Shown here one piece after another: positions 6,601-41,038 of a stretch of DNA of 64,000 nucleotides (position 1 is its first letter; the number at the start of each line of letters is the position of its first letter). The translations under genes and the position numbers were made by a program. Origin of the DNA: an uncultured virus (IMG/VR IMGVR_UViG_3300044974_001201). Its lineage: Duplodnaviria; Heunggongvirae; Uroviricota; Caudoviricetes. The notes under the pieces are model-generated. The model saw only the letters and a list, made by a program, of their open reading frames with translations. It made no database searches and was not told the origin of the DNA. The stretch lies in the IMG/VR virus record IMGVR_UViG_3300044974_001201, one strand, 5' to 3'.

Positions 6601-6630
6601 GGTTGCTGCAACTGGCGGCATACGAGAGGC

Positions 6631-7197
6631 ATGGCAACCACGAAGATTACGGTCAAGGGCACTTGCGGCGCGTGTTTCCTGCCGATGGCGCTCGACGTGG
6701 ACGGTCGCGTAAAGCGCCACGACTGGCGCGAGCCCGGTGTGCGCCGAGCGGCGGTGTACGGCAACGCGGACCATCATGGCCCGTGCTTCGGGAGCAATCG
6801 CCTCCCGTTCGAGTTATCGCCCGACTGCACCGTCGCGTTCGTGGCGGATGTACTCCTGCCAATGGCGCTCGACACGGGTGCGCAACTCGACGCGCTCGAT
6901 GCGCAGGCCGCCCTCCGCGATGCCGCGGCACAGGAACTCACCAAGCGGCGCGATTACATCGCCAGCGACGCGGCGTACTGCCTTCGTGCGATCGAGACGT
7001 GGGCTCTCGCGGAGGTTGTCACCGTCAAGAAGAAGCCGCGGCTCGTGCACGCACGCGGTTCTTACCGCGGCTTCACGGCGTGTGCGCGCCGCATCACGTC
7101 GTTCTATGCGAACCGCGCCGTGACTGAGAATGCCGACGCGGCGACGTGCCCGAAGTGCCTCGCGAGCCTCGCGAAGAAATCGGCGGCGACGGCGTAA
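6631..7197 (+). CDS. Zn-finger-like protein, paralogue B (lacks the central region of A)
   Basis: Shares GTCGACF, GPCFG, LPFE.SPDCT.AFVA.VLLPMAL, CLRAIETWA and AATCPKCLA.LAKKSAAT with 5866-6600. Confidence 0.8.
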   Translation: MATTKITVKGTCGACFLPMALDVDGRVKRHDWREPGVRRAAVYGNADHHGPCFGSNRLPFELSPDCTVAFVADVLLPMALDTGAQLDALDAQAALRDAAAQELTKRRDYIASDAAYCLRAIETWALAEVVTVKKKPRLVHARGSYRGFTACARRITSFYANRAVTENADAATCPKCLASLAKKSAATA

Positions 7198-7231
7198 GGT
7201 TGCCGTCACTCGGAGCGTAAGAGAGGACACC

Positions 7232-7675
7232 ATGAACACGACGCACGCCCCCTCCGTCCGCTACGTCATCGCCACCTCCTTCGACTCGGCGAAGTGCTTC
7301 GCCGTCCCCGCGGCGTGGGTCGGCGCGGCGATCGACCTTCTGCGCTTCGCTGCGGAGTTCCCCCACCGCGCGTCGTGCATTGCGCAACTGCGCGACTGCG
7401 ACGAGGGCTGGTACGTCTCGCGAGACGCGAGCACCGGAGCGGTCGAGAAACCGTCCGATGCCATTCTCGCGATCGCACGTTCCGCGGAGATCCTCGGTCG
7501 CGCGAAGGGCGTTCTGCGCTACGACGTGCTCGACGCCGCTGGGATCGTCGTTGAAACGTTCTTGCACGACGAACCGTTCATGGCGCTCGGACGTGCCGCA
7601 AGCCCCACGTATTACGACAAGGCGCCCCTGAGCGTTCGCCCGGTCGTGTGCGGTGCAGCGCGAACAACCGGGTGA
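7232..7675 (+). CDS. Hypothetical protein
   Basis: Promoter repeat and GAGAGG RBS upstream. Confidence 0.7.
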   Translation: MNTTHAPSVRYVIATSFDSAKCFAVPAAWVGAAIDLLRFAAEFPHRASCIAQLRDCDEGWYVSRDASTGAVEKPSDAILAIARSAEILGRAKGVLRYDVLDAAGIVVETFLHDEPFMALGRAASPTYYDKAPLSVRPVVCGAARTTG

Positions 7676-7932
7676 CCATCACCACCGCGACGCCGCTCAC
7701 CGCGGAGAACGTCGAGCGGGCGTGCAACTCGCACTTCCGGTCGGCGCTCGCGATGCACCACACGATGGGGCGGCTCACGTCGATGCGCGTGCTCCCGATC
7801 GGGAGCCAGCGATCGTTCAGCATCAGTTTCACCCCGTACGAGGCGACCATCACGGACGACGACTCGGGGCGCCGCGAGCACTTCGCCGACGAGTTCGCGC
7901 GCAGGTTCGGCGGCAAGCGGGTCGGCGGCTAG
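7672..7932 (+). CDS. Hypothetical protein
   Basis: GTGA coupling with the upstream ORF. Confidence 0.5.
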   Translation: MTITTATPLTAENVERACNSHFRSALAMHHTMGRLTSMRVLPIGSQRSFSISFTPYEATITDDDSGRREHFADEFARRFGGKRVGG

Positions 7933-8819
7933 TACCGCAGCATGGCCCCCGTGATCGTGCCCTCGTCGGAGAACAGCGGCGCGGTCGCGGGGTCCGCCAG
8001 CGCCTCCGCCAGCGACCGCTGCGCACCATCCACGAGCACTACGCCCGCCACGAAGCGGGGCTGCTGCGAGTAGTCGTAGTACGTCCGCGAGTGCACCGTC
8101 GAGAGCGACTGCACGCGGGCGCCCGACGCATCCCACCCGCCGTAGATCGCGCACTTGTCGGGCGTGTTGCGCCGCATGTTCGTGAGCACGTAGTCCTTCG
8201 AGAAATCGCTCACGATTCCGGTACGCCCCGCGCGTCTCGCTTCGATGGCGGCGCTCGACGTGACGAACGTTCGCGGCGACTGCCGGTCGGCGGAGTACGC
8301 GCGGAACGGCACCCGCGCCGTCGCGCTGGCGTGGATCGCGTCCACCATCTTGCGCGTCGGGAGCGAGACGCCGTAGTGGTCGGCGATGCGCTGCGCCGTA
8401 ACGACGCTCACGGGGGCGTGGAACGGCGCGGAGTCGGGACCGACGCACAAGGGCATGGACGCGCAGAAGAACGTCCCCGTGCGCCCGCCAGCCGTCGCCG
8501 TGACGGGCACAAACTGCGACGGGGCGACGATGCCGGTCGGGACGTTCCCCGCGAGGGCGGTGTCGAGCACGGCGCGCTCGTACTGCGCGGCGGTCATCGA
8601 GGCGACGGCGGCGGCGAAGTCGGTGAGCACCGGGGCGGGAGGTGACGGCATCGTGGGCACTGTAGGCGGGCGAGGGGTGGCGGGGAGGGGCGTCGGAGTG
8701 GCGGGCACGGCGACGGAGGGCGCCGCGCTGCGGGGCCATAGGATCACGGCGAGGCCGGTCACCGCGGCAACGCCAGCGGCAACCTCGACGCCGTTCTGCG
8801 AGAGCCATGATCGGGGCAT
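7929..8819 (-). CDS. N-terminally anchored protein: Pro-rich linker plus conserved bacterial domain of unknown (possibly cell-wall-related) function
   Basis: MPRSWLSQNG-TM; GNVP, TAQRIAD..LPTRKMVDAI, KDYV, AIYGGW..VQSLS.VH..YYDYSQ motifs. Confidence 0.75.
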   Translation of the reverse strand: MPRSWLSQNGVEVAAGVAAVTGLAVILWPRSAAPSVAVPATPTPLPATPRPPTVPTMPSPPAPVLTDFAAAVASMTAAQYERAVLDTALAGNVPTGIVAPSQFVPVTATAGGRTGTFFCASMPLCVGPDSAPFHAPVSVVTAQRIADHYGVSLPTRKMVDAIHASATARVPFRAYSADRQSPRTFVTSSAAIEARRAGRTGIVSDFSKDYVLTNMRRNTPDKCAIYGGWDASGARVQSLSTVHSRTYYDYSQQPRFVAGVVLVDGAQRSLAEALADPATAPLFSDEGTITGAMLRY

Positions 8820-9312: not shown

Positions 9313-10251
9313 TCACCACCCTGCGGACCAGAACTGGCGCGGGTAATACGGCGCCAGCGCGTCGTGGTCGAGCGCGCTGCGCTTGAAGATCGCGTGCTTC
9401 GCGTAGTCGGCGGGCGTGAGCGTTCGCGTGCTGCGATCGTCGAGGAGTTCGCTCCCGAGCCCCACCGCGTCGATCGCTGCTCGCGTCGTACCGGCGAGCG
9501 CCTGCGCTCGCGTAATCGTGCCGCCGTTGTCGGTGTAGACGGTCGCGAACCGACGGTCGCCACCCGGCCCGAAACGTCGCGCGTTCTCGGCGATCCACGC
9601 GGCGAACACGGCCTCCGAGTTGTACAGCGCGTCGAGGAGCACCACGGAGTTGAGGCCGGTAGGCCGGTCACGCACGACCGCCGCCGCGGGCAAGATGCCA
9701 CCCGAGTGCGCCATCACGCCGAGTCGGCGAACGTTCGCGGATGTTCTCGCGCCGAGTCGTGCGGCGACCGCGGGATGCGCGAGCACCTCGTCGAGCATCG
9801 CTGCGAATCGGCCCGGTTGCGCGAGCGCGCCAGCATCCATCCCCGCGGCGTCGTACCGGAGTTCGGGCACGATCAGCAGCGCCTTCGATCCCGAGCCGAC
9901 GAACTGCGCGAGAAGGTGCGACGCCTTGTGGGGGTGCCCCGACGACGAGCATGGCCCGTCGGTGTCGCCGAGCACGCGATCGACGCATTTTAGCACGCCG
10001 CGGAAGTAGACCCACACGTCGAGCGGGTCGGAGGGACCGAGGCCCGAGGGGATCACCACGGCGGAGGGCTTGCGCTGTTCTGGAAACGGGCCGGTCGCAA
10101 GGTCGAGCATCAACACTTGCGTCGCGCTCGACGCTGCGCTGGCGGTTGCCGTGAGCGCGATCACCGCGACGCCACCGACCGCGAGTGCGGCGGGCGCGAT
10201 CCACCAGAACGACGACGGGGCGCTGTTGCGGGATGCACGACGTTTTGCCAC
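9313..10251 (-). CDS. Membrane-anchored alpha/beta-hydrolase-fold protein
   Basis: N-terminal TM; AHSGG nucleophile elbow, LLDALY, C-terminal DH. Confidence 0.8.
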   Translation of the reverse strand: MAKRRASRNSAPSSFWWIAPAALAVGGVAVIALTATASAASSATQVLMLDLATGPFPEQRKPSAVVIPSGLGPSDPLDVWVYFRGVLKCVDRVLGDTDGPCSSSGHPHKASHLLAQFVGSGSKALLIVPELRYDAAGMDAGALAQPGRFAAMLDEVLAHPAVAARLGARTSANVRRLGVMAHSGGILPAAAVVRDRPTGLNSVVLLDALYNSEAVFAAWIAENARRFGPGGDRRFATVYTDNGGTITRAQALAGTTRAAIDAVGLGSELLDDRSTRTLTPADYAKHAIFKRSALDHDALAPYYPRQFWSAGW

Positions 10252-10290
10252 GGCGCCACCGTAACGCGGCGGGCGACGCCGTGGCAACGC

Positions 10291-10989
10291 TCACTTGCGG
10301 ATCGCGACCGTCACGGCGACGTAACCACCGCCGTAGCCACCGGACTGCCGCACGTCGGTCACGACGCCGCTCACGCCGTGCACCGCGACGTTGCCAGCAA
10401 CCCACCCGCCGTCGGAGGCGATGAGCGCGACTTCGCCCTCGTCGGTGCCGGGAATGGCCTTCGGGGCGTGCCAGAACCCCTCCTCGCGCTGGCGTCGCGT
10501 CGGCGAACCGAACGACACCACGACGGTCTCGACCTCCGACACCGCAGCCGCATCGGCGTCGGTCTGCGCCTCGAACAGTTCGAGCTTCACATCGACCTCG
10601 TCGAGCGCCTCCGCGGCCTTCGGGCGCCACGCCCGGAGGAACTCCATCGCAGCGGGGACGCTCACGCCGAGTGCCTCCGCGACCGCGGGCCAGCGGTCGA
10701 TGGGAGCGGACGCGCCTACCGCGCGCTGGAGACCCTCGACGAAACGCCCGGTCTCCCATCCGTCGAGACCCGTGATCGCGCGGATTCCGTCCGCGACGAG
10801 CAAGCGGTACGTGGTGTGCGACCACTTGCCGTTGCGCGTGAAGGACGTGCCGACCACGGCGACCACGCCGTCGATCGAACTGCTCACGAAGCGAATCACG
10901 CGGTCGCGCTTCGCGTCTACGAAGAGCAGCCACGACGCGCGGCTGCGGTGCCCAATGCCGTCGGACCAGTTGAGTTCGTTGGGGTTCAT
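10291..10989 (-). CDS. Hypothetical protein
   Basis: Promoter repeat upstream; protein-like composition. Confidence 0.75.
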   Translation of the reverse strand: MNPNELNWSDGIGHRSRASWLLFVDAKRDRVIRFVSSSIDGVVAVVGTSFTRNGKWSHTTYRLLVADGIRAITGLDGWETGRFVEGLQRAVGASAPIDRWPAVAEALGVSVPAAMEFLRAWRPKAAEALDEVDVKLELFEAQTDADAAAVSEVETVVVSFGSPTRRQREEGFWHAPKAIPGTDEGEVALIASDGGWVAGNVAVHGVSGVVTDVRQSGGYGGGYVAVTVAIRK

Positions 10990-11126
10990 GCTCCCTTCTA
11001 CGTGCGGAGCGACCCGATTCTGACACGGCGACGTGATGTTTTCTGGAAACCGCATGAGAATAGAGTGTTCGAGAAAAACGAGGCGGGGGTTGTAAGAACT
11101 CAGCCACCCGGTTCGTAAGAGTGGGC

Positions 11127-11474
11127 ATGAACCTCACGAACCTCACGCCGCACGCCATCACCCTCCGCTCCGCCGACGGCACCGATACCATCGTACCCCC
11201 GAGCGGCACTGTCGCTCGCGTCTCCAGCACCCCCGGTGCGCTGGAGACCGTGGCGGGCATTCCGGTCCCCGTCGCGGGGATGCAGACCTTCGGCGGCGTC
11301 GAGGGGCTCCCGGCCCCTGCGGAGGGCACGATGTTCATCGTGAGCGCGATGGTGCTCGCGGCGCTTCGCGGTTCGCGCCCCGACGTAGTCGGTCCCGGCA
11401 CCGGCCCGAACGATGGGGCCGTGCGAAACGAGAAGGGCCACGTCGTGGCCGTCACCCGGTTGGTTCGCGGGTAA
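11127..11474 (+). CDS. Conserved phage-type hypothetical protein (NLTPH N-terminus)
   Basis: MNLTNLTPHAI..PSG.VARV..GLP..FIVS.MV..RPDV..VRNEKG. Confidence 0.85.
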   Translation: MNLTNLTPHAITLRSADGTDTIVPPSGTVARVSSTPGALETVAGIPVPVAGMQTFGGVEGLPAPAEGTMFIVSAMVLAALRGSRPDVVGPGTGPNDGAVRNEKGHVVAVTRLVRG

Positions 11475-11711
11475 GGTGCAAGCGATGGAGCCACTTCATC
11501 GGGTATCGAGGATGGAACTCGCCCTCCTGCAACTGCAACAGCGCCCGAGTCCGCCGCTGTTGCAGTCGCTCCCGCCGCGCGACGTAGAGAATCCGTGCGG
11601 CGGCGAACACCGACTGGTTTTCGTCGGGTGGTGCCGGTGCGATGGATGGCACAAGCGTGGCAATACGTGCCGCGCGAGCGAGCGGATCAAGTTTCGATGC
11701 AGGAGGCCGAC

Positions 11712-12029
11712 GTGACGAACGACAACTTCGCGACTGAGATGGATACGATGCTCCGCGCGATGAAGCGCGGCGCGGAGTACGCGACGAAACTCGCGAACGA
11801 TTGCCTTGGCGGTGGCGTCGAGCGGTTCCGCACCGCGCGCCTCTTCGCGAGCGCCGCGCGGGCGTCGTACAGCGCCGCCGTCGATATCCGCGAGGGGTAC
11901 GGCGGACTGGAACCGGGCGACCGCTACCTCGCGATTCAACGCCTCTGCGACACCGTGGGCGGCTGCATCGACGGCCTGCAAGCGTTGCAGACGGAGAAGC
12001 AACACGCCACCGACGCGGGCGTGAACTGA
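11712..12029 (+). CDS. Hypothetical protein
   Basis: AGGAGG RBS, GTG start. Confidence 0.6.
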   Translation: MTNDNFATEMDTMLRAMKRGAEYATKLANDCLGGGVERFRTARLFASAARASYSAAVDIREGYGGLEPGDRYLAIQRLCDTVGGCIDGLQALQTEKQHATDAGVN

Positions 12030-17649: not shown

Positions 17650-18039
17650 ATGCTCACCGAGAAGATCCACGCCGTAACCGTCCGCTGGCCCGCAGTCGAA
17701 GGCGATATCGCCGACCGCGAGGCGGCTCTCCGCGAGCGCGACGTGCTCCGCCGCGGCATCGAAGAGTCGGCCTTCTCCGCGGGCGCCACGCAGGTTCGCA
17801 TCCTCGGCGCATGGGGCGTCGTGCTCGACCACTACCCGCTCGACACCCGGCGCTTCGACGTGCGCGAGGGCCAGCGCGTCTCGTTCCCGTCGAAGTCGGC
17901 GGGGACGAACGGCGCGCGTCGGTTCGGCACCGTCGTCGCTGAGACGGCGACGCGGGTTCGCGTCTCGTACGTGTTCCGCCACGGCGGCGCGTCGGAGAAG
18001 TGGGTTGCGCGACGAGACGTGCGCCCCGCGCGGAGCTAG
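17650..18039 (+). CDS. Hypothetical protein (C-terminal SH3/KOW-like strands)
   Basis: Promoter repeat upstream. Confidence 0.65.
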   Translation: MLTEKIHAVTVRWPAVEGDIADREAALRERDVLRRGIEESAFSAGATQVRILGAWGVVLDHYPLDTRRFDVREGQRVSFPSKSAGTNGARRFGTVVAETATRVRVSYVFRHGGASEKWVARRDVRPARS

Positions 18040-18976: not shown

Positions 18977-19238
18977 GCGGTTGACGGGATCGTACCGTTG
19001 CTGCTACGAAGGCGACCGACCGTTCGCGGATTTCTGCTGCTTCCCCGCGTTAGCCCCTCCCCGAAGCCGAGCAGCGTCAGGGGAGGGGCGGTCACAACAG
19101 CGAATCTAGAGCCGCAGCCCGACGCGCGGGCGGTACTGCGCCATGCGCTCCGTCCAGCCGTGGATGCTCTCGGGGCTCGGGCCGATCGCGGCCTTCGCGA
19201 GCTTGACCGTGTGCACACGAACGCCGCGCAGAACGCAA

Positions 19239-19829
19239 TCACAACTGCGCGAGGATGCCTTCGAGCGCGTCGTCGATTGCCTCCGCCGACGTTCGCCCGC
19301 GGCCCACGTCGCTCCACCGCTCGAACTCCCGGCTGCGGTCGTTCTCGACGGTGAGCGTCACGCGGACGCCGCCGCCACGAAGCGGCTTGACCGTCGCCCC
19401 GTAGAACTCGCCGAACGCCTTGATCTTGCGCAGGATCGCCCGCGTGGTGGCGTTGTCGCGCAACGTGAGTTCGGTTGCCTTGCTCGGGTTGCGGTAGCTC
19501 GCGCGACTCGACGGGCGCTTGCTGCACCCGCAGCCGTTCGCGTGGGCGACGCGCGGCAGTTCGGCGACGATCGACGCCATCGCGTCGTTGATCGCTTCCG
19601 CCTCCGTCGCGCCCTCGCCGTGGTCGCGCCACGTTGTCACGCGGTCGCCGATGCGACTGTGCGCAACAGCCGACACGCTCACCGTCGCGATGAAGCGCCT
19701 GCGCCCGAGTTGCCGAACGGCGACGTGCGACTCGTGCAGCGAGCCGACGGCACGCACCGCGGCGAGGATCGCGCGCCGGTAGCGATCGTCGGGCAGCGCC
19801 ATGATGCCATCGCGCGCCGCCGTAGTCAT
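19239..19829 (-). CDS. Two-domain protein with ANG/RNP basic linker
   Basis: Duplicated W.D.G.G.T.AEAI.DA motif either side of HANGCGCSKRPSSRASYRNP. Confidence 0.75.
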   Translation of the reverse strand: MTTAARDGIMALPDDRYRRAILAAVRAVGSLHESHVAVRQLGRRRFIATVSVSAVAHSRIGDRVTTWRDHGEGATEAEAINDAMASIVAELPRVAHANGCGCSKRPSSRASYRNPSKATELTLRDNATTRAILRKIKAFGEFYGATVKPLRGGGVRVTLTVENDRSREFERWSDVGRGRTSAEAIDDALEGILAQL

Positions 19830-20447: not shown

Positions 20448-21332
20448 TCAACCGCGCTTCGGGACGGCGTGCGGGCCGTTCGCTTCGGGGCCGAAGGCGG
20501 CGATGTGCGCGGCGACCTTACGCTTGTCGATGTCGTTCGCGCCGTCGAACGAATTGTAGAACTCGATCTCCGCCACCTCGCAGCGAACGTCGAAGTCGAC
20601 CACCACGTAGGCGCCGTCGGCGGGCGCGTCGAGGGTGACGGGCCACGGCACGCTGCGCACGTTCTCGCGGAACACGAACTCGATGCGGTTGGGGTGGCAC
20701 ATCGCGCCCTCCGCGTCGCGGCGCGTCTTCGCGTCCACCGGATCGGCGATGACGTGACCCGCGGGGCGCCACGCGATCGTGCCGTCGTCGCCACGGAGGA
20801 ACCGCGTCGGCCCCACGAAGAGGGAGCACGACGAGTTGTTGCCGGGAGGCTGGATGCGCGCTTCGCCGCCGTGCAGGAGCGCGTCGGTGAGCACGCCTTG
20901 CAGTTCGGCGACGGTCGCCGTGTCGGGCAGAACGTCGCCACCGTGCCGCGGGAACGCGAACGCCTCGCGCTTGTCGTCGATCGGAACGTGCTTCACGTCG
21001 CTCGCGGCGACGACACGGGCGATCGACGGGAACACCAGTGTGACGCCCGTGAGCAACACGGGGCACGCGCGCGACCATGCGCCGCCAGCGTACGTGTTCG
21101 TCACGTCGGTGCTGTTGTCGGGCACGTACTCGGTGCTGTAGCCCGCGCGAACCCACGGGAACCGTACCGTGTCGTCGATCCCGTGCTCGAACGCGAGCAG
21201 TTCGCGGGTGACGGGCACCAGCGAACGCGTCTCCGCGTCGAAGCGGAACCCGAACGCCAGTGCGTGGTGCTTGTGGGGCATGGACGAAACTCGATCGCTC
21301 ACGTTGAACTCCTCGCGCGAAAACGCGACCAC
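20448..21332 (-). CDS. Diverged paralogue of the candidate capsid protein at 29532-30443
   Basis: Collinear shared blocks DRVSS, AF..GIDDT..P...AGYST..VP.NS.DVT.TY.GGA, PPGNN..CS.F.G, PNR..F.F, DG...IDKRK. Confidence 0.8.
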   Translation of the reverse strand: MVAFSREEFNVSDRVSSMPHKHHALAFGFRFDAETRSLVPVTRELLAFEHGIDDTVRFPWVRAGYSTEYVPDNSTDVTNTYAGGAWSRACPVLLTGVTLVFPSIARVVAASDVKHVPIDDKREAFAFPRHGGDVLPDTATVAELQGVLTDALLHGGEARIQPPGNNSSCSLFVGPTRFLRGDDGTIAWRPAGHVIADPVDAKTRRDAEGAMCHPNRIEFVFRENVRSVPWPVTLDAPADGAYVVVDFDVRCEVAEIEFYNSFDGANDIDKRKVAAHIAAFGPEANGPHAVPKRG

Positions 21333-21426: not shown

Positions 21427-21609
21427 CTAGCGGGCGGAGCGGCGCTTCGCGGGCTTGCGACCGGCCTTCGCGGCCTTGATCTTGCGCTCCAGCGCCTTGA
21501 TCTGGAGGCGGTGGGTCTTGCCGCCGACGATCACGGGGATCGTCTTGACGGGAACCTTCTTGGTGGACTTGCGGGCGGGCTTCTTCGCGGACTTCTTCGC
21601 ACGGGCCAT
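21427..21609 (-). CDS. Small Lys/Arg-rich histone-like protein
   Basis: MARAKKSAKKPARKSTKK..; AAGGAG RBS; strongly biased codons. Confidence 0.75.
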   Translation of the reverse strand: MARAKKSAKKPARKSTKKVPVKTIPVIVGGKTHRLQIKALERKIKAAKAGRKPAKRRSAR

Positions 21610-21735
21610 GACGTAACTCCTTGTGATCGCGATTTGCGATGCTGAGAACCCGACTCTACACGCACCCGTGAAACATATTCAACACCGACGTGAAGATTTT
21701 TTCGGCGAGTGTCGTACCATGTCCACGAGAACCAA

Positions 21736-22509
21736 ATGCGCCACTCGATCGCCTCGATCATTTTCGCCGTCGCGTGCTCACTCCCGAGCGTCGCCCACGC
21801 CGTCAATCCTACGATCGCGGAGCGTATCGGCGCTGCGATGGCCGAGTCGCGGTACGCCGACGCCGTGACGTTGATCGACGAACTGGAACGCGCGAGCGGG
21901 CCGTCGCTGCGGTCGCGGTGGGCACGCGCGCAGGCGCTTCTTCTCGGCGAGCGCAACGCCGACGCGAACACGGCGGCGGGCGTGTGCCTCGACACGGCGG
22001 CGCACTCGACGGAGGCGTTCGCCGCGACGGCGCGTACCGACTGCGAGCGCATCCGTGACCGTGCGCGAGCGGCCCTGAGTGCCGCGGTGCCCGTCGCGCC
22101 GGTTCCGCCGCCCGTGGCAGCGCCGCCGACGGTCGCAGCGGTGGCACCCGTGCGCCGCGTGGTGGCGGTCACGCCGCCCCGCAGTCTCGCCCCGACGACG
22201 CCCGCGGTGGCACTGCTCTCCGTCGGTGCCGCGTCACTCGCCGCGAGCGTGGTGTTCGGTGTGCTCGCGAACGACGCGACCTCCGACTGCACGGTGCAGA
22301 ACGACGTGGCGACGTGCGCCACGCAAGAGGGCCTCGCGCGGGCGCGCACCTCGACGGACTACGCCACGGGCGCGAACGTCGCGCTCGGCGTCGGGCTCGG
22401 CGCCGTCGGTGCGGGCGCCGCGTGGTGGATCGCGACTGCGCTCCGCTCGCCTACGCCCGTGGTGGTGAGCGTGTCGGCCGACGGCGTGGTCGTCGCGGGC
22501 CGCTTCTGA
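21736..22509 (+). CDS. Exported TPR-like protein of myxobacterial PEGA-family architecture
   Basis: Signal peptide (..SVAHA), helical repeats, Pro linker, two hydrophobic segments, C-terminal VVVAGRF. Confidence 0.7.
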   Translation: MRHSIASIIFAVACSLPSVAHAVNPTIAERIGAAMAESRYADAVTLIDELERASGPSLRSRWARAQALLLGERNADANTAAGVCLDTAAHSTEAFAATARTDCERIRDRARAALSAAVPVAPVPPPVAAPPTVAAVAPVRRVVAVTPPRSLAPTTPAVALLSVGAASLAASVVFGVLANDATSDCTVQNDVATCATQEGLARARTSTDYATGANVALGVGLGAVGAGAAWWIATALRSPTPVVVSVSADGVVVAGRF

Positions 22510-24771: not shown

Positions 24772-25144
24772 GGGGTCGAAAGGTTTCGACTGGGCAGCGA
24801 CGACGATTGAGGTGCAGCCGTTGAGTTCGCGCACAACGTAAACACGCGCGGAAGCCTCAAATGCGAACGATAACTTCGTTCCCGCCTTCGCCGCCGCTGC
24901 CTGAGAGCGACCCGCGAAAGCCTCTCCGATCGTCACCCCGCTCATGGTGACCCGGAGTGCAAATAAAGTGAGCTAGGCCGCGACGCCGCCGACGGGCGCC
25001 GCAGATGAAAACCTAACAGTCGAGCCGATCGTGTTGAGCCTGCCAGTGGGCGCGACGCGGTAGCTGATAAACCACTGGAAACGCTGCAAATGCTCTGACT
25101 CTTAGTTGTGCAGGACCGGGGTTCGATTCCCCGCGACTCCACCA
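24772..25144 (+). ncRNA. ssrA: tmRNA (one-piece), tag peptide (A)ANDNFVPAFAAAA
   Basis: 5' GGGGTCGAAAGGTTTCGAC pairs with 3' CGACTCCACCA including the G3.U alanyl determinant; T-arm GGGGTTCGATTCCCC; tag ORF 24863-24904. Confidence 0.97.
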
Positions 25145-28468: not shown

Positions 28469-28912
28469 TCAGGCGATCGGCAGATCGGTCACGACGATCT
28501 GGTAGCCACCGTACGAAATGATGATCTGGGTCGTGGCCGACGCGCCCGAGAGCGTGCACGTTGCCGTGATAATGCCGGTCGCGGCGGAGACGATGTTGAT
28601 CGAGCCGCCCGCGGGGGTCGTCGATCCGTTGTTGGGGCCTGCCAGCACGCCGACGCTCACGCCGAACGCGTTGTTCGCGAGCGTTGTACCGGACGGCACG
28701 ACAGCGAAGTTCACGGTGCCGCGGGTCGCCGCGCCGCTCGCGTTGACCAACTTGAGGTTGAGCGTCACGATGTGCGAACCGCCGTCGGTGACGAAGTTGG
28801 TCGTCGCATCGACGGTGCGGATCACGGGACGCACGGCCGACGCCGCGTTCGCGGTGTTCGACAGCGTGAAGATGCGATCGGGCAGGGCTTCGGGAAACTT
28901 GATGTCTCTCAC
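28469..28912 (-). CDS. Beta-rich putative virion protein
   Basis: Thr/Ala/Val-rich with alternating beta-strand pattern; downstream of the candidate capsid genes. Confidence 0.7.
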   Translation of the reverse strand: MRDIKFPEALPDRIFTLSNTANAASAVRPVIRTVDATTNFVTDGGSHIVTLNLKLVNASGAATRGTVNFAVVPSGTTLANNAFGVSVGVLAGPNNGSTTPAGGSINIVSAATGIITATCTLSGASATTQIIISYGGYQIVVTDLPIA

Positions 28913-28932: not shown

Positions 28933-29448
28933 CTAGCCGATGACGGAACCGACCGAAATTGCGGGTGCGCCCTGCTGCAATCCCGGTTGAAATCGAGCGA
29001 AGATCGTCGCCTTGAGTTGCGTGGCACTCGCGGCGGCGACACGGACGCGGGCTTGCAGTAGGAACTGGTCCGCTTGCAGCCCGCCGAACTGGAACAGCAT
29101 ACCCTCACGCGAGAAGTCCGACGCCGACTTGACGTTCGTCGTGCCCGCGGCGGGCTCTTGATCGAACACCGCGCCCGAACCTTCGCATCCGACGCCGTGG
29201 TAGAGGCGCCAGTCGATTTGGAACGGGAACGTGAATGGCACGCCCATCAGATCGAACTTGTCGCCGACGTAGATCGTGGTGGCGCCTTGCGGGACGTTGT
29301 ACCACAATACCATGTTGGCGAACGCAGTGTCGGCGGCGGGCGGGGCGGCGGGGACAAGCGCGGGGATGTTGCGCACCACGTAGGGAGCAACCGGGGACAT
29401 CTTGTTGTTGCCCGAAAGGTCTACGATCAGTGCGCCACGCGTGTCCAC
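28933..29448 (-). CDS. Beta-rich putative virion protein (possible small capsid or penton protein)
   Basis: 171 aa, AAGGAG RBS, directly downstream of the candidate MCP. Confidence 0.65.
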   Translation of the reverse strand: MDTRGALIVDLSGNNKMSPVAPYVVRNIPALVPAAPPAADTAFANMVLWYNVPQGATTIYVGDKFDLMGVPFTFPFQIDWRLYHGVGCEGSGAVFDQEPAAGTTNVKSASDFSREGMLFQFGGLQADQFLLQARVRVAAASATQLKATIFARFQPGLQQGAPAISVGSVIG

Positions 29449-29531: not shown

Positions 29532-30443
29532 TCAGATGCCGCAGAACGAGTTGGCGCCGCGGAAGTACGCGATCTTGCGCTTGTCGATCTCCTCGACGCC
29601 GTCGTACTCCGACTCGTCGGCCGAGAACTTCACGCGCGCGTACTCGACGCTCACGATCAGGTCGAGCACGATGAGGTCGTTGTCGGTGAGGGCCGAGAGC
29701 GCGGGGAGCTTCTGCACGTTCAGGGACGCGGTGCCGGGGACCGACGTCGAAGCGACGCTCGGGCCGAACGTGAACTGAAGGCGGTTCGGGTTGAAGTCGC
29801 CCATGTTCCGCAGGTTCGGCTCGACGAAGATCTCGTTGGCGAACGTGTACCGCGCCTCGGGCCGGTTCTGGCCGGGGGTCGAGAGGTTCGGCGAGTTCGA
29901 CTGGCCCATGCCCGAGTTGAAGAACTGGGGCAGACCGAGGAACGCCGAGCACATCGTGTTGTTGCCGGGGGGCAGCACGTTCGCGAACGACTGGTGCACC
30001 ATCGCGCCCCAAAAGTCGTCGAACTGCGCCGACAGGTCGGTCACGGTGCCGCCGAAGCGGGGAACCTGGGGGGTGCCCGAGTCGAGCGACGTGCCGCTCG
30101 CGAGGGGCATCACGCGGAGCGTCTGCTCGGGCATGAGGCCCACCGAGAGGATGATGCAGGGGTCGGTGATCGAGAACGCGCCGCCCTTGTAGGTCGACGT
30201 CACGTCGATCGAGTTGTTCGGCACGGTCGCCGTCGAGTAGCCCGCCTGCGCGAACGGGAGGGCCGTGGTGTCGTCGATGCCGCTGGTGAAGGCGGTGAGG
30301 AGGCTGGTGAGGGGGATGCAGGTGTTCGTCGGCAGGTCGTACTGCCACACGAACGCCATCTTCTGGTGATGAACGCGGAGCGACGAGACGCGATCGTTCA
30401 GGTTGACGCTCGACGTGCCGTTCTTGGAAATCCACTGAGCCAT
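29532..30443 (-). CDS. Candidate major capsid protein (jelly-roll type inferred)
   Basis: 303 aa, beta-rich, highly biased codons, AGAAGGA RBS; sits after a membrane protein; has a paralogue. The ORF is secure, the capsid function is inference. Confidence 0.55.
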   Translation of the reverse strand: MAQWISKNGTSSVNLNDRVSSLRVHHQKMAFVWQYDLPTNTCIPLTSLLTAFTSGIDDTTALPFAQAGYSTATVPNNSIDVTSTYKGGAFSITDPCIILSVGLMPEQTLRVMPLASGTSLDSGTPQVPRFGGTVTDLSAQFDDFWGAMVHQSFANVLPPGNNTMCSAFLGLPQFFNSGMGQSNSPNLSTPGQNRPEARYTFANEIFVEPNLRNMGDFNPNRLQFTFGPSVASTSVPGTASLNVQKLPALSALTDNDLIVLDLIVSVEYARVKFSADESEYDGVEEIDKRKIAYFRGANSFCGI

Positions 30444-30535
30444 TGTCTGATCCTTCTTCTGCGAACGTTTGTGGGCCATCGGCCCGTTGAAGACTTGTGC
30501 GTGCCCGACTCACTCACGCGGTCGGGCGTGGTTGC

Positions 30536-31048
30536 TCAGGCGGCGGCGGTGCCCCACCCGCGGTACGCGTTGTCGCCCACGGGAGCGCCCGCGGGGATCG
30601 TCGAGTACGGGTAGCCCGCGCCGAGGCCCATGTAGGCGTTGCTGCCGACGGGGAGCCCGCCCGCGCCGTAGACGCCGGAGGCGGAGCCGTAGCTCGCGGC
30701 CATCGCGGTGCGCTGCGCGTCGAGGGCCGCGGCGACCTGATCGCCGCCGAGCTTGTACGCGCTGTAGCGGAGCACCGCGAGCGTGCCCGTGCCCGCGGCG
30801 ATGCCGAGGCCCACGGACGAGCGCACCATGCCGGGGGTGCCGAGCAGCATCAGCGCGGCGCCGATGCCGAAGCCGCTCAGGCCGATGATGAGATCCTGCG
30901 TCCCCTCGCCCTCCGTGCCCGCGAAGCGAGCGACGAGGTACGAGGCGGCGCCAGCGCCCACGGCGGCGACGGCGGTCACGCCGAGCATGCGCAGGGCCGT
31001 CTTGAGGTAGCCGCCCTCGGGCGGGTTGCGGAGCGAACGATGAGCCAT
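30536..31048 (-). CDS. Multi-TM Gly/Ala-rich membrane protein with SLRNP leader
   Basis: About three hydrophobic helices; GGGAGG RBS; alternative start at 31114. Confidence 0.8.
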   Translation of the reverse strand: MAHRSLRNPPEGGYLKTALRMLGVTAVAAVGAGAASYLVARFAGTEGEGTQDLIIGLSGFGIGAALMLLGTPGMVRSSVGLGIAAGTGTLAVLRYSAYKLGGDQVAAALDAQRTAMAASYGSASGVYGAGGLPVGSNAYMGLGAGYPYSTIPAGAPVGDNAYRGWGTAAA

Positions 31049-31243
31049 GTTGTCTGACCTCCCACCGGGGTTGAGCAGCGTCACGGTTCGGGTGTTGCGG
31101 TTGTCGTGCGCCATCGGTGTGAAGCGTAGATACCGACTCGCCGCAATCGCGTCTACGATTGCGAACGCCATGCCCGCAGTCTATTCACAACAAAACTCAA
31201 ACGTTGTTGCGAATTGAGTTTCGTTGGGTTAGCGTCGGTTCAA

Positions 31244-31612
31244 ATGCCGCGAAAACCGCAGAATTCCGCAACGTCGTTCTCGCTTCTGGACGCCCCGCTG
31301 CGCGCGAAGGTCGACGTGGCGATTTCGGCGTGGAACGTCGCGCACCCGCAATCGGACCCGATGACGCTCGCCTCGTTCATGCGCGCAGCGCTGCGCGCGT
31401 ACCTCGCGGGAATGGTGCGCGTAGACGACGTGATCCTCGACGAAACGCTCATCGCGGAGGTGTCCGCGCACGTCAAGAAGATCAACACGTCGCACCCGGA
31501 CGACCCGTACGACGTGACTCGTTTTGTGCGTGTTTCACTGCGTAAAGCGATGCGGTCCGCGGGAGGGAACGCGATCACGTCGCCGAACAAGCGATCCGTG
31601 ACCGGAGGCTGA
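31244..31612 (+). CDS. Tandem ribbon-helix-helix-like regulator
   Basis: Two repeats LD..L...V......N..HP..DP.....F.R..LR; divergent from the structural operon. Confidence 0.65.
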   Translation: MPRKPQNSATSFSLLDAPLRAKVDVAISAWNVAHPQSDPMTLASFMRAALRAYLAGMVRVDDVILDETLIAEVSAHVKKINTSHPDDPYDVTRFVRVSLRKAMRSAGGNAITSPNKRSVTGG

Positions 31613-31656: not shown

Positions 31657-32376
31657 TCAGTCGATCATCCAGCCGTCCTTGACGCGCATCGAGCCGCCCC
31701 GCAGAAACACGCGGCACCCGCTCTCCGAAACGTCCACGAACGGGAGGTTCTCGTGACGTTCGCTCTCGGGGTGGTCTTCGGCCATCTCGTGGCGGTAGTT
31801 CACGAGCCCCTTACCGTTGTTGCGGTTCGCTTCGTACGCGGCGGCGAGGCACCGACCGACGCAGATCACACGTTCGGGGAAAACGATCTCGGCTTCAGCG
31901 CACTCGTGCGGTTCGAGTCCGCCGTGGTGCGAGGCGTAATCGTCGTTCTGCGCGCGGTGCTTGCGCTTCGCCGCGTCGAGGTCGCACGCGCGGTGCTTGA
32001 ACGCAGCGCACGGCCCCTTCTTCGTGCGGTGGAACCCCTTGCCGTCGACTTGAAACACGCCGCCGACGAACCAGTATTGCTCGTTCCGGCGATCGTAGAA
32101 CACGCGCGGCATGAACTGCCGGTCGGCGTCGGTGACGTGGTTCGGCTGCGCGGCGAAGTCCCAGAACTCCTTCTTGCCGTCGAAGCGTTCGACTTCGAGC
32201 CACACGAGCGGGCCGAACGCGCGAACGTCGGCCTCGTTCGGGAGTTCGGGGTAGGGCACCGTCGTGACGTGGGCGTACTCGGGCGCGAGCCCGTACCGCT
32301 TGATGATCGCGGAGGGCGTTGCGTCGTGGTTGGAGTTGCGGACGGATCGTCGGGCGGGGCGGCGGCGGTTGTGCAT
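31657..32376 (-). CDS. Protein with two copies of a beta domain after a basic SVRNS leader
   Basis: P.V....W/F..GG...V repeated twice. Confidence 0.8.
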   Translation of the reverse strand: MHNRRRPARRSVRNSNHDATPSAIIKRYGLAPEYAHVTTVPYPELPNEADVRAFGPLVWLEVERFDGKKEFWDFAAQPNHVTDADRQFMPRVFYDRRNEQYWFVGGVFQVDGKGFHRTKKGPCAAFKHRACDLDAAKRKHRAQNDDYASHHGGLEPHECAEAEIVFPERVICVGRCLAAAYEANRNNGKGLVNYRHEMAEDHPESERHENLPFVDVSESGCRVFLRGGSMRVKDGWMID

Positions 32377-32425
32377 ACACCGCAGAATGCGCGAAACGTC
32401 GGAACGTTTCAAGCGCGGCGTGGGA

Positions 32426-33652
32426 TCAGATCCAGCGGTTCTTCTTCGCGTACCACGCGAGGCCACCGATGGCGACGACGCCGACGACGGCGATGCCGAC
32501 CTTCGTCGCGGTGCCCATCGGCTGCGGCGGTGCGGTGGGCTGTTGCGGGGGCGCCACGGGGTACGTCGGCGCGGGTCCGGGGGCCAGCGCGTTGTTGTTG
32601 CCGGGGAGCCCTTCAGTGCGCGTCGGCGGGAGACCGGGCGCGGGACCGGGACCGGGACCGGGCGGGATGACGGGCGCGATGACGTGCGGCGGGATCTCCT
32701 CGCTCGTCTGCGAGAGCACCGTCACGCTGGTGACGCCCGCGGGGGTTACGTGCCCTTGAAGGCGAACGATCGTGCGCCGGTCCGCCGTGAACGGCAGCGT
32801 GAGGTTGAACACGACCCTCGACCCGTCGTATCGCGTGAGCGTGACCGTCCCCGGCAGCGTGTCACTGGCGCCGGGAGCGAGGCGCACTTCGATCAGCGCG
32901 CTCGTGGAGTTCGTGCCGTCCGCGGACTGCGAGACGATGCGCACGTTGCCAGAACCGGCCCACGGAGTGAACCCCGCGGGGGGGCCACCGAGTTCGCTCG
33001 CGGGAGGCGGGAGGAACGTCACCAAGCACTCCGCGATGAGCAGTTCGGGCGGTGCCGTCTCCGTGCGAGTGATGGGCGCCACCGGCACGGGGTTCGTCGT
33101 GACGGGCGGCGGCACGTTCGCGTTCGTGGGGAGGTTCGCCGTCTGTCCCGACGGGAGCGTCACGGGCGCCAGCGCCACGTCGCGGCCCGTCGCGATGTCG
33201 CGCATGCGCAGGTACGACGACGACCCCGGCGCGAGCGTCGCGGTGGCGATGTCGGGGTACACCACCGAACCGGGGAGGCCCACGTCGCCGATGCCGCCGA
33301 ACAGCGCGCGGCAGATCGCGTACGACATCAGCGGCGCGAGCACGGGTTCGTTGTTGGCGAAGTTCACGCCGCGCGAACGTGCGTCATTCACGATCGCGAT
33401 GCGCGTGTTGTCGCCGAAACGTCCATCGACGTGAGCGCCCACCGCCTGCTGGATCAGACGGATGAGCCACGGCGCCTGCGTGTTGACGATGTAGATGCGG
33501 CCCGCGGGAGCGCGCCAGAAGAACACCGCGGAGCCCTGCGCGCCGGAGACGAACGACGACGTTTTCCGCCCGTTGACGGAGACGACCTCGTACGGACCGA
33601 TCACGAAGTCGCTTACGACGCGATTGAATTCTGCCTGTTCGGAGGGAGTCAT
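32426..33652 (-). CDS. Putative virion protein with C-terminal TM anchor
   Basis: LIQQAVGAHVDGRFGDNT (peptidoglycan-binding-like); Pro-rich linker; TKVGIAVVGVVAIGGLAWYAKK. Confidence 0.8.
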   Translation of the reverse strand: MTPSEQAEFNRVVSDFVIGPYEVVSVNGRKTSSFVSGAQGSAVFFWRAPAGRIYIVNTQAPWLIRLIQQAVGAHVDGRFGDNTRIAIVNDARSRGVNFANNEPVLAPLMSYAICRALFGGIGDVGLPGSVVYPDIATATLAPGSSSYLRMRDIATGRDVALAPVTLPSGQTANLPTNANVPPPVTTNPVPVAPITRTETAPPELLIAECLVTFLPPPASELGGPPAGFTPWAGSGNVRIVSQSADGTNSTSALIEVRLAPGASDTLPGTVTLTRYDGSRVVFNLTLPFTADRRTIVRLQGHVTPAGVTSVTVLSQTSEEIPPHVIAPVIPPGPGPGPAPGLPPTRTEGLPGNNNALAPGPAPTYPVAPPQQPTAPPQPMGTATKVGIAVVGVVAIGGLAWYAKKNRWI

Positions 33653-33655
33653 GGT

Positions 33656-36600
33656 TCAGCCCTTCTTCTTGAGCGCGAGGTAGGCGATGCCCGCGACGGC
33701 CACGGCGCCGACGCCGATCGCGGCCACGGTGCCGGTGCTCATGCCCTGCGCGGGGGGCTGAGTCGCCGTATTGAGAGCGTTCGCCACCGACTGCTGAGAG
33801 GGGTTCGGCCCGAGCGCCGCGATGCGCGCCTGAGCGTCGGCCTGAATGCGCGCGATTTCGATCTGCGCGTTCGCCGCGATCTGCGCGTTCGCCGACGAAG
33901 CGTTCTGGCGGAGCGCCTCGATGTGCTGCGCCGACTCACGATCGAGGTACGAGTTCAGCACGCCGATGCCCGTGGTCGCGATCGAACTCACGCCGCCGAG
34001 GATTTGCGCGGCCGAGGGGCCGCTCGAACCGGGCTGCTGCGCGGCGGGAGCACGGAGGCGCTCGCATTCCACGCCACCCATTTCGACGCAGTTCTGATAC
34101 GCCGAGTTCGGGTCGGCGGGGTCGAACGTCATGTCGGTGCCGGGGGGGTTGCCGCCCGCGGGGCGCACCGGGGCGCCACCGGGCTTCGACGGGCTGAGAG
34201 CCTGCGCGATGCGGCAGAACGAGTCGAACTGGCGCGGGTACTGCTGGCGGCGGGCCGCGCAGTCGTCGATCAGCGCGAGCACGTCGGCCGCGGTGTTGCC
34301 CGAACCGGGGCGCGACGGCACGATCCCGTCGAGGCCCGACTGGTGGAACGCGGCGACGATCGCGCGGGGGTCACGCGAGGCGATCGCGCGGAGCGCCGCG
34401 ATGCACTGCGCCGTGGAGGGAGCGCCCACCGCCGCCGTGCCGGGGGCCACGCTGGAGGGCGAGGCGTTGACGTTCTGAACCACGCGCTCGCCGATCGTCT
34501 GCGACGTCGGCGTCGCCACGTCGTACGTGGGACGGCGGGCGTTCGGCCCCTGAAGCACCATCGACTTGCCACCGGGCGCCCCGCTGGGAGCGAACGCGAA
34601 CTGATTGGGGTTCCCGTTGAACACCGCGGTGCCCGTCGAACCGGGCGAGGTGACCGGGCGCACGATCGCGTTTTCGAGCCGCGCGTCGGGCTTGTGCCAT
34701 CGAGCGTTCGCCATGTTGATGACGTTCGCGCCGCTCTCACTCACGTCCACGTCGAAGTTCGCGAAGTAACCGTCGGGGCGACGCACGATGATGTAGCGGT
34801 AACCGCTCATCACGGGCACACGCCACGTCGTCTGCTGCGGGTCGACCCACTGCCCGGAAATCTGAGGGTACGTGTACGAACCATCGGAGCCTTCGATCGT
34901 GAACACGCGACCGTAGTGGGGCATCCCGAAGATCGCGATCGAACTCGGCACGGGGGCCGAAACGCCGAGTTGCGAGGTCCACACCGCGCCCGCGGGGGGC
35001 ACGTACGCGCGGCCCTCGACGAGAATGCCACCGGGAGCGCCACCGGGGGCGACGTGAGGGATAGCGTACGACGTCGTGGCGCTCGCATAGTTGATGGCCG
35101 CCGCTCCGCTCGCGCTCACGTTCACCGTGAAGTCTCGCCCATAGTTCCCGTCGGGCGAGATGATCGACACGCGGTGCTGGCCGACGGGAGCGCGAACCTG
35201 CCACGTCTGCGGGCCGATCCACTGCCCGCCGACTTCGCGGCCGTCCACGAACACACGCCCGTACGCGGGCATCCCGAAGATCGTGACGGGACGCTCGAAA
35301 TCGGGCGTAAGAGCACCGAACACGGGCGCCTGCGTAGCGCCGACCTTGAGCGAGGGCGCCCCGCTGGGAGCGTGCACGCCGACGGCGTCCGCGAACATGG
35401 CGTTCATGGCCTTGTCGACGGCGAACCAGCGAGCGTTCGCGAGGTTGACGACGGCTGCACCGTTCTCGCTCACGTTCAACTCGAACGTGGTGTACACGCC
35501 GTCGGGACGGAGGATGAAGCCCGCGACGGGGCCAGCGGGCACGTTGACCTGCCACGTCGTCTGCTGCGAGTCGAGCCAGCTTCCCGCGAGTTCACGCAGT
35601 TGAATGCCGCCATCGGAGCCGTATCCCGCCACGAACACGCGCCCGTAGTGAGGCATCCCGAAGATCGTGACGGGGTAGCCGAACGTGAACTGAATGCGGT
35701 TCGGGTCGAAGTCGCCACGGTTCGCCGTCGCGTACGGCGCTTCGTGCGCGCCGACCTTGAGCGAGGGCGCCCCCGCCGCAGCGACACCTCGGGCGTCGAG
35801 CACCATCGCGCAGAAGCGCGACACCTCGGCCGACTCGGGGCGGAACGCGCTCCCGAACCACTGCACGAAGTCCGCCGCCGCAGCGCGCGAACCGCGAGCG
35901 ATTTCGGGCGCGAGCGACTGCGCCATCGGGCACCCGTAGCTGCCCACGATCTCCGCCTGCGCGGACGACGGGAGCGTGAGGAACAGCGCCATGCACTGCA
36001 CCGGGTTGACCGCCGAGGGGGCGCCACCGGGGGCCACGATCATCGTCGGCTCGGCCACGACGAGCGGCATTCCCTTCGCGGACTCGAAGGCGGCGACGCC
36101 CTGCTTCGGGGGCTCGATCAGCGCAGGCGTGGCGCCCGCGAGGAGGCGGCGGAACTCGTCGGAGCAGAGTTCGTCGCCGCTGATGATCTCGGCGACGGAG
36201 TACCCGCGGGCGATGAGGTCACGGAACGACTGCGCGCACGCCGACGACACCGTGGGGAACGTGCCGTCGTCGCGACGCTGGCACGCGATGAGTTCGTTCA
36301 TGCCCGTGGCGTCGCAGTAGTCGGGCCGCGGCTGCTGCGCGGGGAGCGGCACGATGGGCGCGAGCACGAACGGCGCGGGCTGCTCGGCGGGCACCTTCGG
36401 CGTCTGCGAGGGGATCGCGATGTCCGTGCGAGGCCCCTTGCCGCGACCCGTGAGCATCGGCACGGAGAGCGTCTGCGCGGGGCGAACGATCGTCGCCGAC
36501 TGCGCGATGGGCGACGTCGAGAGCGTGATCTTCGTCGGCCCCGACGCGGTGTCGTTGCCGCCGCCGTTGCGAGGGATGCCGCCGCGCTTCATCGCGTCGA

Positions 36601-37192: not shown

Positions 37193-37267
37193 TTGGTCGA
37201 TCCCTCGGTGAATGAAACGGTTTGCCACCGCGTATCAGTGAGTTTCGCACGAAACGTCGGCGGGTGT

Positions 37268-39655: not shown

Positions 39656-39658
39656 GAT

Positions 39659-40579: not shown

Positions 40580-40585
40580 GGTCGT

Positions 40586-41038
40586 TCAGCGCGCGATCGC
40601 GAGGGCGAGTTGCCGCGCGGTTTCCTTCGCGTGCGCGCGGTCCTTCGCGTCGTACGCCGACTTCGCGAGCGAGCGCAGTTCGGCGAGCGCCTTCTTCGCG
40701 GTCGCGGCGGGCACGGCGCGACCACCGACGATGTGCGTCCCGGCGCTGTTGATACCGGGCAAGCCCGGTCCCCGCCACGACGCGATGCGCACACCGAGGC
40801 GATCCGTGCCGCGAACCATCGCGGAACCGTTCTTGACGCTTGCGCGCTTCTTCGGGGCGCGCTTCTTCGCCTTGACGGGGCGGGCCTTGCGGCACGTCAC
40901 CAGATCGAACCCGGCGAGGCTGCGACGGCGCACCGACCGGGGGCTGGTGCCCTTGATCGTACGCATCTCGGACCCGCCGCGGCTGCACGCACTCGCCCGC
41001 TTGCTGCGGGGCTTCTTCGTCGTCTTCTTCGCTGCCAT
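40586..41038 (-). CDS. Highly basic putative DNA-condensing protein with SVKNG motif
   Basis: Lys/Arg-rich; AGGAG RBS. Confidence 0.8.
   Translation of the reverse strand: MAAKKTTKKPRSKRASACSRGGSEMRTIKGTSPRSVRRRSLAGFDLVTCRKARPVKAKKRAPKKRASVKNGSAMVRGTDRLGVRIASWRGPGLPGINSAGTHIVGGRAVPAATAKKALAELRSLAKSAYDAKDRAHAKETARQLALAIAR

Follow-up and report, generated by a model that had tools for sequence, protein, structure and literature searches.

Two diverged paralogs of a virus-specific protein family in a lake virus as candidate co-assembling shell subunits

Known jelly-roll shells and the two paralogs of the window

To our knowledge, the heads of all large bacterial viruses are built from the HK97 fold, and jelly-roll shells in bacteria and archaea are known only for genomes of about 10-30 kb. 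Capsids made of several paralogous single-jelly-roll proteins are presumed precursors of double-jelly-roll capsids. In the Helvetiavirae (Sphaerolipoviridae and Simuloviridae, with HHIV-2, SH1, HCIV-1 and P23-77), the two capsid genes are adjacent and lie next to the gene of an FtsK/HerA-type packaging ATPase. Abstracts of the International Committee on Taxonomy of Viruses (ICTV) give an internal membrane and two capsid protein types as traits of these families. According to abstracts, the genomes of those prokaryotic viruses known to use single-jelly-roll capsid proteins measure 16-30 kb, and PMC9894754 gives around 10 kb for tailless archaeal viruses. In the present study, we analysed a 64,000-nucleotide stretch of DNA from an uncultured virus (IMG/VR record IMGVR_UViG_3300044974_001201), hereafter the window, and two open reading frames (ORFs) on its minus strand, copy A (20448-21332) and copy B (29532-30443). 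The best-supported reading is that A and B would represent a variation on the theme of several single-jelly-roll capsid proteins, without membership in any known family.

An earlier note on this DNA had described A as a diverged second copy of B, collinear with it from end to end, and the pairwise alignment bore this out. The 294-residue translation of A and the 315-residue ORF of B gave a single collinear BLASTP alignment with 97 of 288 positions identical (34%), 50% positives, 139 bits and an E value of 1e-43, in which all the motif pairs quoted in the note were present. The two copies are 8.2 kb apart, close to the 8 kb given before. A is also the more charged protein, as had been claimed, with D+E+K+R at 23.8% vs 15.6% in B; the Ser/Thr/Asn content is higher in B, and the pI is about 5.5 for both. 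The ORF of A opens at GTG 21332 (294 amino acids) and has a G+C content at third codon positions (GC3) of 0.90, and its orthologs are 64-71% identical. The true start is most likely GTG 21302, behind a GAGGAG Shine-Dalgarno sequence, which would give 284 amino acids beginning MSDRVSS as in the orthologs. With this start, a leader of about 14 residues of B is absent from A, so the earlier remark on a missing SKNG leader was right and probably too modest. For B, the candidate major subunit, an AAGGA Shine-Dalgarno sequence precedes the start codon ATG 30443 (303 amino acids), which is also where its orthologs begin, and the frame is open up to 30479 (315-residue ORF, 29532-30479). The GC3 of B, 0.95, was the highest among the called window genes of at least 100 amino acids. 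The B ortholog on L009, a metagenome contig of 63% G+C, had a GC3 of 0.92 and was also the highest there.

Like the Helvetiavirae, this virus has two paralogous, mostly-beta shell-protein candidates per genome, a predicted heteromeric contact and membrane proteins encoded beside A/B-type genes. In contrast, A and B show no sequence similarity to the Helvetiavirae proteins and have about 300 residues with large insertions, compared with about 170-290; their genes are well separated and not next to a packaging ATPase; the genome comprises at least 117 kb rather than 16-30 kb; and the host appears to be a bacterium of lake water, according to a transfer-messenger RNA (tmRNA) gene and the lake metagenomes. 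On L009 the paralogs are clustered, but no ATPase was found in the 20.9 kb examined of its 52.9 kb. The internal membrane of the Helvetiavirae is here only hinted at by six tail-anchored proteins. The capsid proteins VP4/VP10 of SPV1 (Portogloboviridae) are likewise among the closest known systems. For the double-jelly-roll capsids of the Bamfordvirae (PRD1 P3, PBCV-1, iridovirus), the likeness is that the PRD1 P2/P3 families were the nearest named clusters of B in a language-model search (0.76), which is a lead only. Unlike those capsids, the A and B models have one beta-sandwich core instead of two, no tandem fused form occurred among 39 family representatives, and no A32/FtsK-type ATPase was seen in about 117 kb. 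The jelly-roll cement or decoration proteins of KHP40 and cyanophage Pam1 are reportedly 124-140 residues long and occur together with an HK97 capsid protein, whereas A and B have about 300 residues and belong to a multi-paralog family, and an HK97 capsid partner was not found among the ORFs scanned. With regard to the HK97-fold capsids of Caudoviricetes, the A and B models are mostly beta and no HK97 chain was among the matches listed for them in any of seven fold searches, an absence that does not exclude an HK97 fold.

A rare family with conserved paralog lineages

As judged from their sequences, A and B are true, long-separated paralogs of a virus-specific family of about 300 residues. Word-indexed searches returned 17 relatives for B and 9 for A, none of which had a Pfam domain or was informatively named. 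When 1.84 billion protein representatives were searched with a profile, 39 family proteins scored at E<=0.001, including 17 at E<=1e-30. Most of these representatives had 86-354 amino acids; the two long exceptions (519 and 4791 amino acids) matched only in short repeated stretches, so no fused double form was seen among the 39. Pfam and PHROGs gave no family for A or B at E<=1, NCBIfam gave no match, and a 47-member family profile found only a chance match among PDB sequences (E 0.66). No match to B was obtained by tblastn against 50,697 phage records, and an IMG/VR scan with the family returned nothing beyond the virus record of the window itself. In 185,579 reference genomes, a pattern scan that reaches close relatives only gave six pattern matches, none of them a relative. 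All family members found came from virus-like metagenome contigs.

A 25-member alignment contained 15 invariant columns, including G144 in the P-R-x-G-G motif, the P-P-G-N-N-x-x-C motif, P-N-R and the N-terminal N-D-R-x-S arm, and A keeps all 15 of these residues. We also observed a Cys within the last five residues of all 12 B-type proteins (FCGI, FCAI or LCAV endings; window 29532-29546), which the second-copy rows lack; it could be a disulfide or cross-link site. A maximum-likelihood tree was built from 50 rows, namely the 47-row alignment and three L009 copies, with a midpoint root only. Identical, fragmentary and multi-stretch matches were left out (P0001, P0010, P0011, P0018, P0023, P0036, P0041, P0046, P0051-P0053, P0055-P0057 and P0059). 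In this tree, A, an extended 346-residue type and a third copy formed one 20-row clade with a support of 99/100, separate from the short-branched B-type rows, with the third copy on a long branch. These results suggested that the second-copy lineage is an old, well-supported clade. The ratio of nonsynonymous to synonymous substitution rates (dN/dS, NG86) was 0.47 when A was compared with its L013 ortholog and 0.57 when B was compared with the one on L009. The GC3 bias compresses dS and limits the value of these ratios, which would indicate only that the constraint on A is at least as strong as that on B.

The relatives provided further evidence on the lineages. L009 carries three family members, two detected by hmmsearch and the third by hhalign: the 346-residue type with a C-terminal extension (6272-7315), the diverged third copy (about 7300-8040; hhalign probability 99.65, E 4.9e-25) and the B ortholog (9962-10894). 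Orthologs of the window genes 31657-32466, 31214-31612, 30536-31171, 28933-29448 and 28469-28912 lie between and after these copies; therefore, all copies belong to one module in L009, which resembles a structural operon. The A orthologs on contigs L012 and L013 are about 71% identical and retain the neighbours of A at 21427-21609, 21709-22509 and 19239-19829. Two family copies only are present in the window together with G001, an IMG/VR virus record of 87,611 bases that overlaps it and carries both. The family thus contains two to three conserved paralog lineages, with two to three paralogs per genome. In the relatives L010 (around 563) and L013 (around 563-588), single frameshifts interrupt genes, at a different position in each and in one case within a G run. 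These are probably assembly errors and not programmed shifts; the contigs are short, and the name of L010 gives a coverage of 3.1.

Several mobile-type genes were also observed. A gene with RRXRR and HNH domains (IscB-like) lies at L009 4658-6211, directly upstream of the extra paralogs; two further RRXRR+HNH genes are at G001 34586-36145 and 47320-48702, and a TnpB gene is near the right end of the window (61230-62621, minus strand). Mobile genes of the IscB/TnpB type may be the reason that A sits apart from B in this virus.

Predicted fold and complex, and the readings they allow

The structures of A and B were predicted with AlphaFold2 from 25-row alignments. The B model had a predicted local distance difference test score (pLDDT) of 73.6 and a predicted template modelling score (pTM) of 0.75, and the A model had values of 75.6 and 0.78. 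Both models were mostly beta, with one helix of 14-16 residues, a C-terminal helix and a disordered N-terminal arm. Foldseek searches of the models against PDB and BFVD gave no match at E<=0.001. The weak top rows were mostly single-jelly-roll capsids (bacilladnavirus, dicistrovirus, circovirus, polyomavirus, SPV1 and iridovirus), and approximately two thirds of the weak fold neighbours listed, as read from the tables, were jelly-roll virus capsid chains, for A and B independently. The alignments to single jelly rolls spanned model residues ~34-290 with 105-140 residues aligned, so in these predicted models a single core fills the chain. Carbohydrate-binding modules, lectins, and the jelly-roll domains of PHM and PNGase F scored like the capsid proteins. 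In the language-model search, the neighbours of B at 0.96 were unnamed viral clusters, the few members of which with a recorded phylum were Uroviricota, and A had only chance-level SPRY/Neuralized neighbours (0.79). Taken as models, these results are consistent with a core formed by a single jelly-roll-like beta-sandwich, which would follow the conserved N-terminal arm N-x-N-D-R-x-S.

We then considered the predicted complex of B (residues 25-315) with A (residues 8-285), for which own alignments, three runs and three controls were used. The complex score was 0.68 (runs 0.00, 0.68 and 0.69), and the best of the three controls scored 0.00. The partner pLDDT was at least 71, and the runs agreed in at least 0% of contacts. 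Of 157 solved complexes in a benchmark, 116 reached the mark, as did 2 of 215 mismatched pairs; these counts are only rough here, own alignments having been used. The confident contacts joined B 142-148 (F-G-G-T-V-T-D) to A 222-229 and to the A helix 143-157. The B segment comes directly after the near-invariant R141/G143 and the invariant G144, and A 222-229 follows P-N-R-I-E-F-V-F. The model supports binding between A and B; the predicted contact is head-to-tail, uses family-conserved residues and would suit rings or lattices, and the interface could equally be the homo-oligomer interface of the family. The hetero-capsomer option of the earlier note is favoured by the complex score, the separate conserved clade and the shared operon in L009, while the capsid role in it is one that we infer.

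B is one of the last genes of a long minus-strand operon, which upstream of it encodes five consecutive tail-anchored proteins of 408, 1190, 795, 306 and 246 amino acids (32426-42485, minus strand). Each of them ends in a Gly-zipper hydrophobic helix followed by a basic tail; the Kyte-Doolittle method detected four of the five anchors, and that of the 795-residue protein was judged by eye. A sixth protein with a very similar helix and basic tail is encoded at 56795-58117 on the plus strand. No family or PDB-sequence match was found for the tail-anchored proteins. The block beside B hints at a particle that may contain lipid.

We tentatively interpret A and B as two jelly-roll shell subunits that assemble together in a membrane-containing virion. 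Both would be part of the protein shell or lattice of the particle, because they form a virus-only, multi-paralog, jelly-roll-like family with predicted binding through invariant residues, and because B has the top codon bias, membrane proteins are encoded next to it and no HK97-type hallmark was seen in about 117 kb. In the proposed stoichiometry, B would be the abundant major subunit, in keeping with its strongest codon bias, its Ser/Thr/Asn-rich composition and its C-terminal Cys, and A would be a second, more charged subunit lacking the N-terminal leader. A would bind B head-to-tail to give hetero-oligomeric capsomers, as with the two single-jelly-roll capsid proteins of sphaerolipoviruses, and the tail-anchored proteins would sit in a lipid membrane with the shell on or around it. 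Several points weigh against this interpretation. The fold evidence is weak, one of the three complex runs scored 0.00, and paralogs of a self-associating protein can pass the complex test by likeness. A and B are 8 kb apart in this virus, A being placed among genes without a structural signature, and no FtsK/HerA-type or other packaging ATPase was found in about 117 kb. The genome of at least 117 kb (a contig of 162 kb carries an identical A) is several times that of any known prokaryotic jelly-roll virus. In addition, about 45 kb are unseen, flanked on the G001 side by fibre-like and tape-measure/endolysin-region genes, and this part could hold a classical head-tail module. The wider proposal, in which A, B and the third copy would supply the capsids of a new lineage of bacterial lake viruses that are large, tailless and membrane-containing, with shells of two to three single-jelly-roll paralogs in place of an HK97 protein, unrecognised packaging machinery and no sequence link to known Varidnaviria, is possible but doubtful.

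The main alternative is that the virus is a highly diverged tailed phage of the HK97 type, with A and B as accessory jelly-roll virion proteins (decoration or cement, tail, baseplate or fibre-associated). The true capsid, portal and terminase would then lie in the missing 45 kb or be too diverged for profile searches. ORFs were called with a GC3-based script, and 131 of them were scanned with Pfam and PHROGs over about 117 kb (69 in the window, 59 in G001 and three straddling locus borders). Families of HK97 capsid, portal, terminase, tail tube, sheath or baseplate, or DNA polymerase were found in none of the 131, and NCBIfam on 68 window ORFs agreed. Tail, portal, terminase and HK97 families are usually the easiest phage genes to detect, and their absence from the scanned ORFs argues against a tailed phage, as does the codon bias of B, the strongest of the sizeable genes and a feature rather expected of the most abundant virion protein. 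It would also be unusual for head or tail modules to encode five tail-anchored membrane proteins within one operon. On the other side, the recorded phylum of the 0.96 neighbours of B is Uroviricota, and two genes of G001 would fit this alternative. One encodes a 651-residue fibre-like protein (79918-81873, locus L016) that matches phrog_23837 'virion structural protein' (E 2.7e-21), and the product of the other, a small protein (83737-84462), resembles a tape-measure/endolysin region (phrog_9228, E 2.1e-8). A large tailed phage would also be in keeping with the genome size and with the tmRNA gene, a kind of gene known from such phages, and head-to-tail oligomers suit accessory proteins in rings or trimers no less than capsomers. 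Overall, we regard a tailed phage as conceivable, with rather less than even prospects.

It is unlikely that A and B stand outside the virion altogether, as intracellular or host-directed beta-sandwich binders such as lectin- or SPRY-like adaptors, including A as a decoy against capsid-sensing defences or an assembly chaperone, as the earlier note had also suggested; nothing specific speaks for these last two options. The capsid-like fold scores of binding modules, lectins and enzyme domains would allow such a role, as would the SPRY/Neuralized neighbours of A, at chance level only, and the position of A apart from B, among unannotated genes and beside a small K/R-rich protein. No signal peptide or enzymatic motif was noticed in A or B, although no search was aimed at either with a dedicated tool. 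The second and third copies lie inside the operon of the B ortholog in L009, the codon bias is high in both window copies, and the predicted mutual binding uses family-invariant residues. The restriction of the family to virus-like contigs, with no member among the reference genomes at the reach of the pattern scan, also speaks for a viral role. A reading of A as a redundant copy, displaced from the operon and on its way to being lost without having a role of its own, is very improbable: the shift of A by 8 kb while the copies are clustered in L009, the longer branches of the second-copy clade and the IscB- and TnpB-type genes, one of them directly upstream of the L009 paralogs, would fit such a history, but A has an intact frame with a good Shine-Dalgarno sequence, a GC3 of 0.90, all of the family-invariant residues and a dN/dS similar to that of B, and its lineage is a strongly supported 20-row clade with orthologs on several independent contigs that have kept their own neighbours.

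Gene neighbourhood and the lake virus

Around B, the gene just downstream encodes a 171-residue protein (28933-29448, minus strand), a 66% identical ortholog of which directly follows the B ortholog on L009; it had no family match, and hhalign found no profile similarity to the A/B family. The last gene of the operon encodes a 147-residue protein (28469-28912, minus strand; GC3 0.88), whose L009 ortholog (11524-11919) gave a weak Filamin/Ig-like Pfam match below the cut-off (E 0.0021), so the protein is possibly Ig-like. Just upstream of B is the gene of a 211-residue Gly-rich protein (30536-31171, minus strand; GC3 0.91) with two membrane helices predicted by the Kyte-Doolittle method (segments 62-80 and 92-110) and an ortholog beside the L009 B ortholog. 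A conserved 269-residue protein (31657-32466, minus strand), also lacks a family match; its ortholog on L009 (8108-8794; 61% identity) immediately follows the second and third paralogs and thus lies between them and the B ortholog. Just upstream of A, a 60-residue K/R-rich protein with a pI of 12.0 is encoded (21427-21609, minus strand; GC3 0.93); it is conserved next to the A orthologs, with 89% identity beside that on L012. The earlier note had placed a histone-like gene and RNP-motif genes near A. The first description holds in composition only, no family match having been found for this protein, and the second was not borne out, no RRM or other RNA-binding Pfam family being present in any neighbour.

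The window has a G+C content of 68%. Its positions 1-33652 are 100% identical to G001 34594-943; G001 has a CheckV completeness of 71%, and together the two records make about 117 kb visible. The cluster of a protein identical to A includes, as its longest contig, one of 162,276 bases, which against the visible 117 kb leaves about 45 kb of the genome unseen. The same DNA occurred in 24 lake or freshwater metagenome runs among the runs listed, none of them RNA. Contigs of four lake runs carried the same sequence in fragments, with no listed difference inside A or B, which is uninformative on diversity or expression. The Pfam curated cut-off was passed by 5 of the 69 window ORFs (GP88, a LAGLIDADG/Hint pair, a KaiC/RadA-like ATPase and TnpB). 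Seven of the 69 had a PHROG match at E<=0.001, none structural, and NCBIfam on the 68 ORFs added only RadA-like and TnpB annotations. In the 59 ORFs of G001, Pfam identified the two IscB-like genes, a UvrD helicase and an ADP-ribosylglycohydrolase, and PHROGs nothing structural except the tape-measure/endolysin-region match. The three border ORFs encode a class-V aminotransferase, a protein of no known family and the 651-residue repeat protein. Walker-A motifs in real frames over the visible genome were confined to the RadA-like ATPase and the UvrD-like helicase. In phmmer searches against PDB, four of five large neighbouring or flanking proteins had no match. IMG/VR searches with two other window proteins found no relatives, and tblastn against phages, with the RadA-like protein and the 11121-11471 protein as queries, gave no consistent cultured relative.

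The 651-residue protein contains about eight 40-residue repeats (N-P-M-T-T-x-G-D ... G-Q-V-L-T), and its C-terminus gave a weak match to a sialidase lectin domain (E 0.0029, phmmer against PDB). A 514-residue S/T/A/G-rich protein is encoded beside it (G001 86022-87566), and the two may be fibre- or spike-like genes that border the unseen part of the genome. The class-V aminotransferase (G001 39303-40565, locus L014) is cysteine-desulfurase-like (Pfam E 1.3e-50) and is a possible auxiliary metabolic gene. The LAGLIDADG homing-endonuclease domain and the Hint fragment occupy two adjacent ORFs (window 49580-50737, minus strand) with no recognisable host protein around them; the 'terminase' PHROG matches in the window fell on this LAGLIDADG/intein-like ORF.

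A tmRNA gene is located at 24772-25144 on the plus strand, with the ARAGORN tag peptide ANDNFVPAFAAAA and an Rfam RF00023 score of 113.9 bits (gathering 47), and it points to a bacterial host; a degenerate pattern of the tag gave 0 matches in the reference genomes. The Rfam CyVA-1 small RNA motif (52.9 bits; gathering 41.4) was found at 19017-19094 (plus strand), in the gap upstream of the genes adjoining A. ARAGORN also called a 90-nt tRNA-Gly(CCC) inside an ORF at 17853-17942 (plus strand), which is doubtful, Rfam at the gathering threshold showing no tRNA there. A second paralog family on the plus strand comprises 55620-56738 (372 amino acids) and the sixth tail-anchored protein (440 amino acids), which are 38% identical (E 5e-52), and the 169-residue protein of 58128-58637 shares their C-terminal domain (48% identity, E 1e-21). 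The adjacent plus-strand genes 5866-6600 and 6631-7197, both matching phrog_28271 of unknown function, have a stretch of about 250 nt at 80% nucleotide identity; by this measure they are another tandem duplication.

Collectively, these results describe a recurrent lake virus, nearly all visible ORFs of which are without a family match. A literature search of listings and abstracts found no description of the A/B family or of the virus, and a search for large jelly-roll or tailless bacterial viruses, limited in the same way, returned nothing similar, only small-genome families. On a modest reading, A and B represent a new virus-specific protein family with a testable hetero-oligomer. If the family forms the shell of a bacterial virus of more than 117 kb, the genome-size rule for jelly-roll viruses would be broken, and this would be a third independent case of multi-paralog single-jelly-roll capsids. 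If the proposal of a new tailless lineage is true, the virus would be by far the largest non-HK97 prokaryotic virus, with several times the genome size of the known members.
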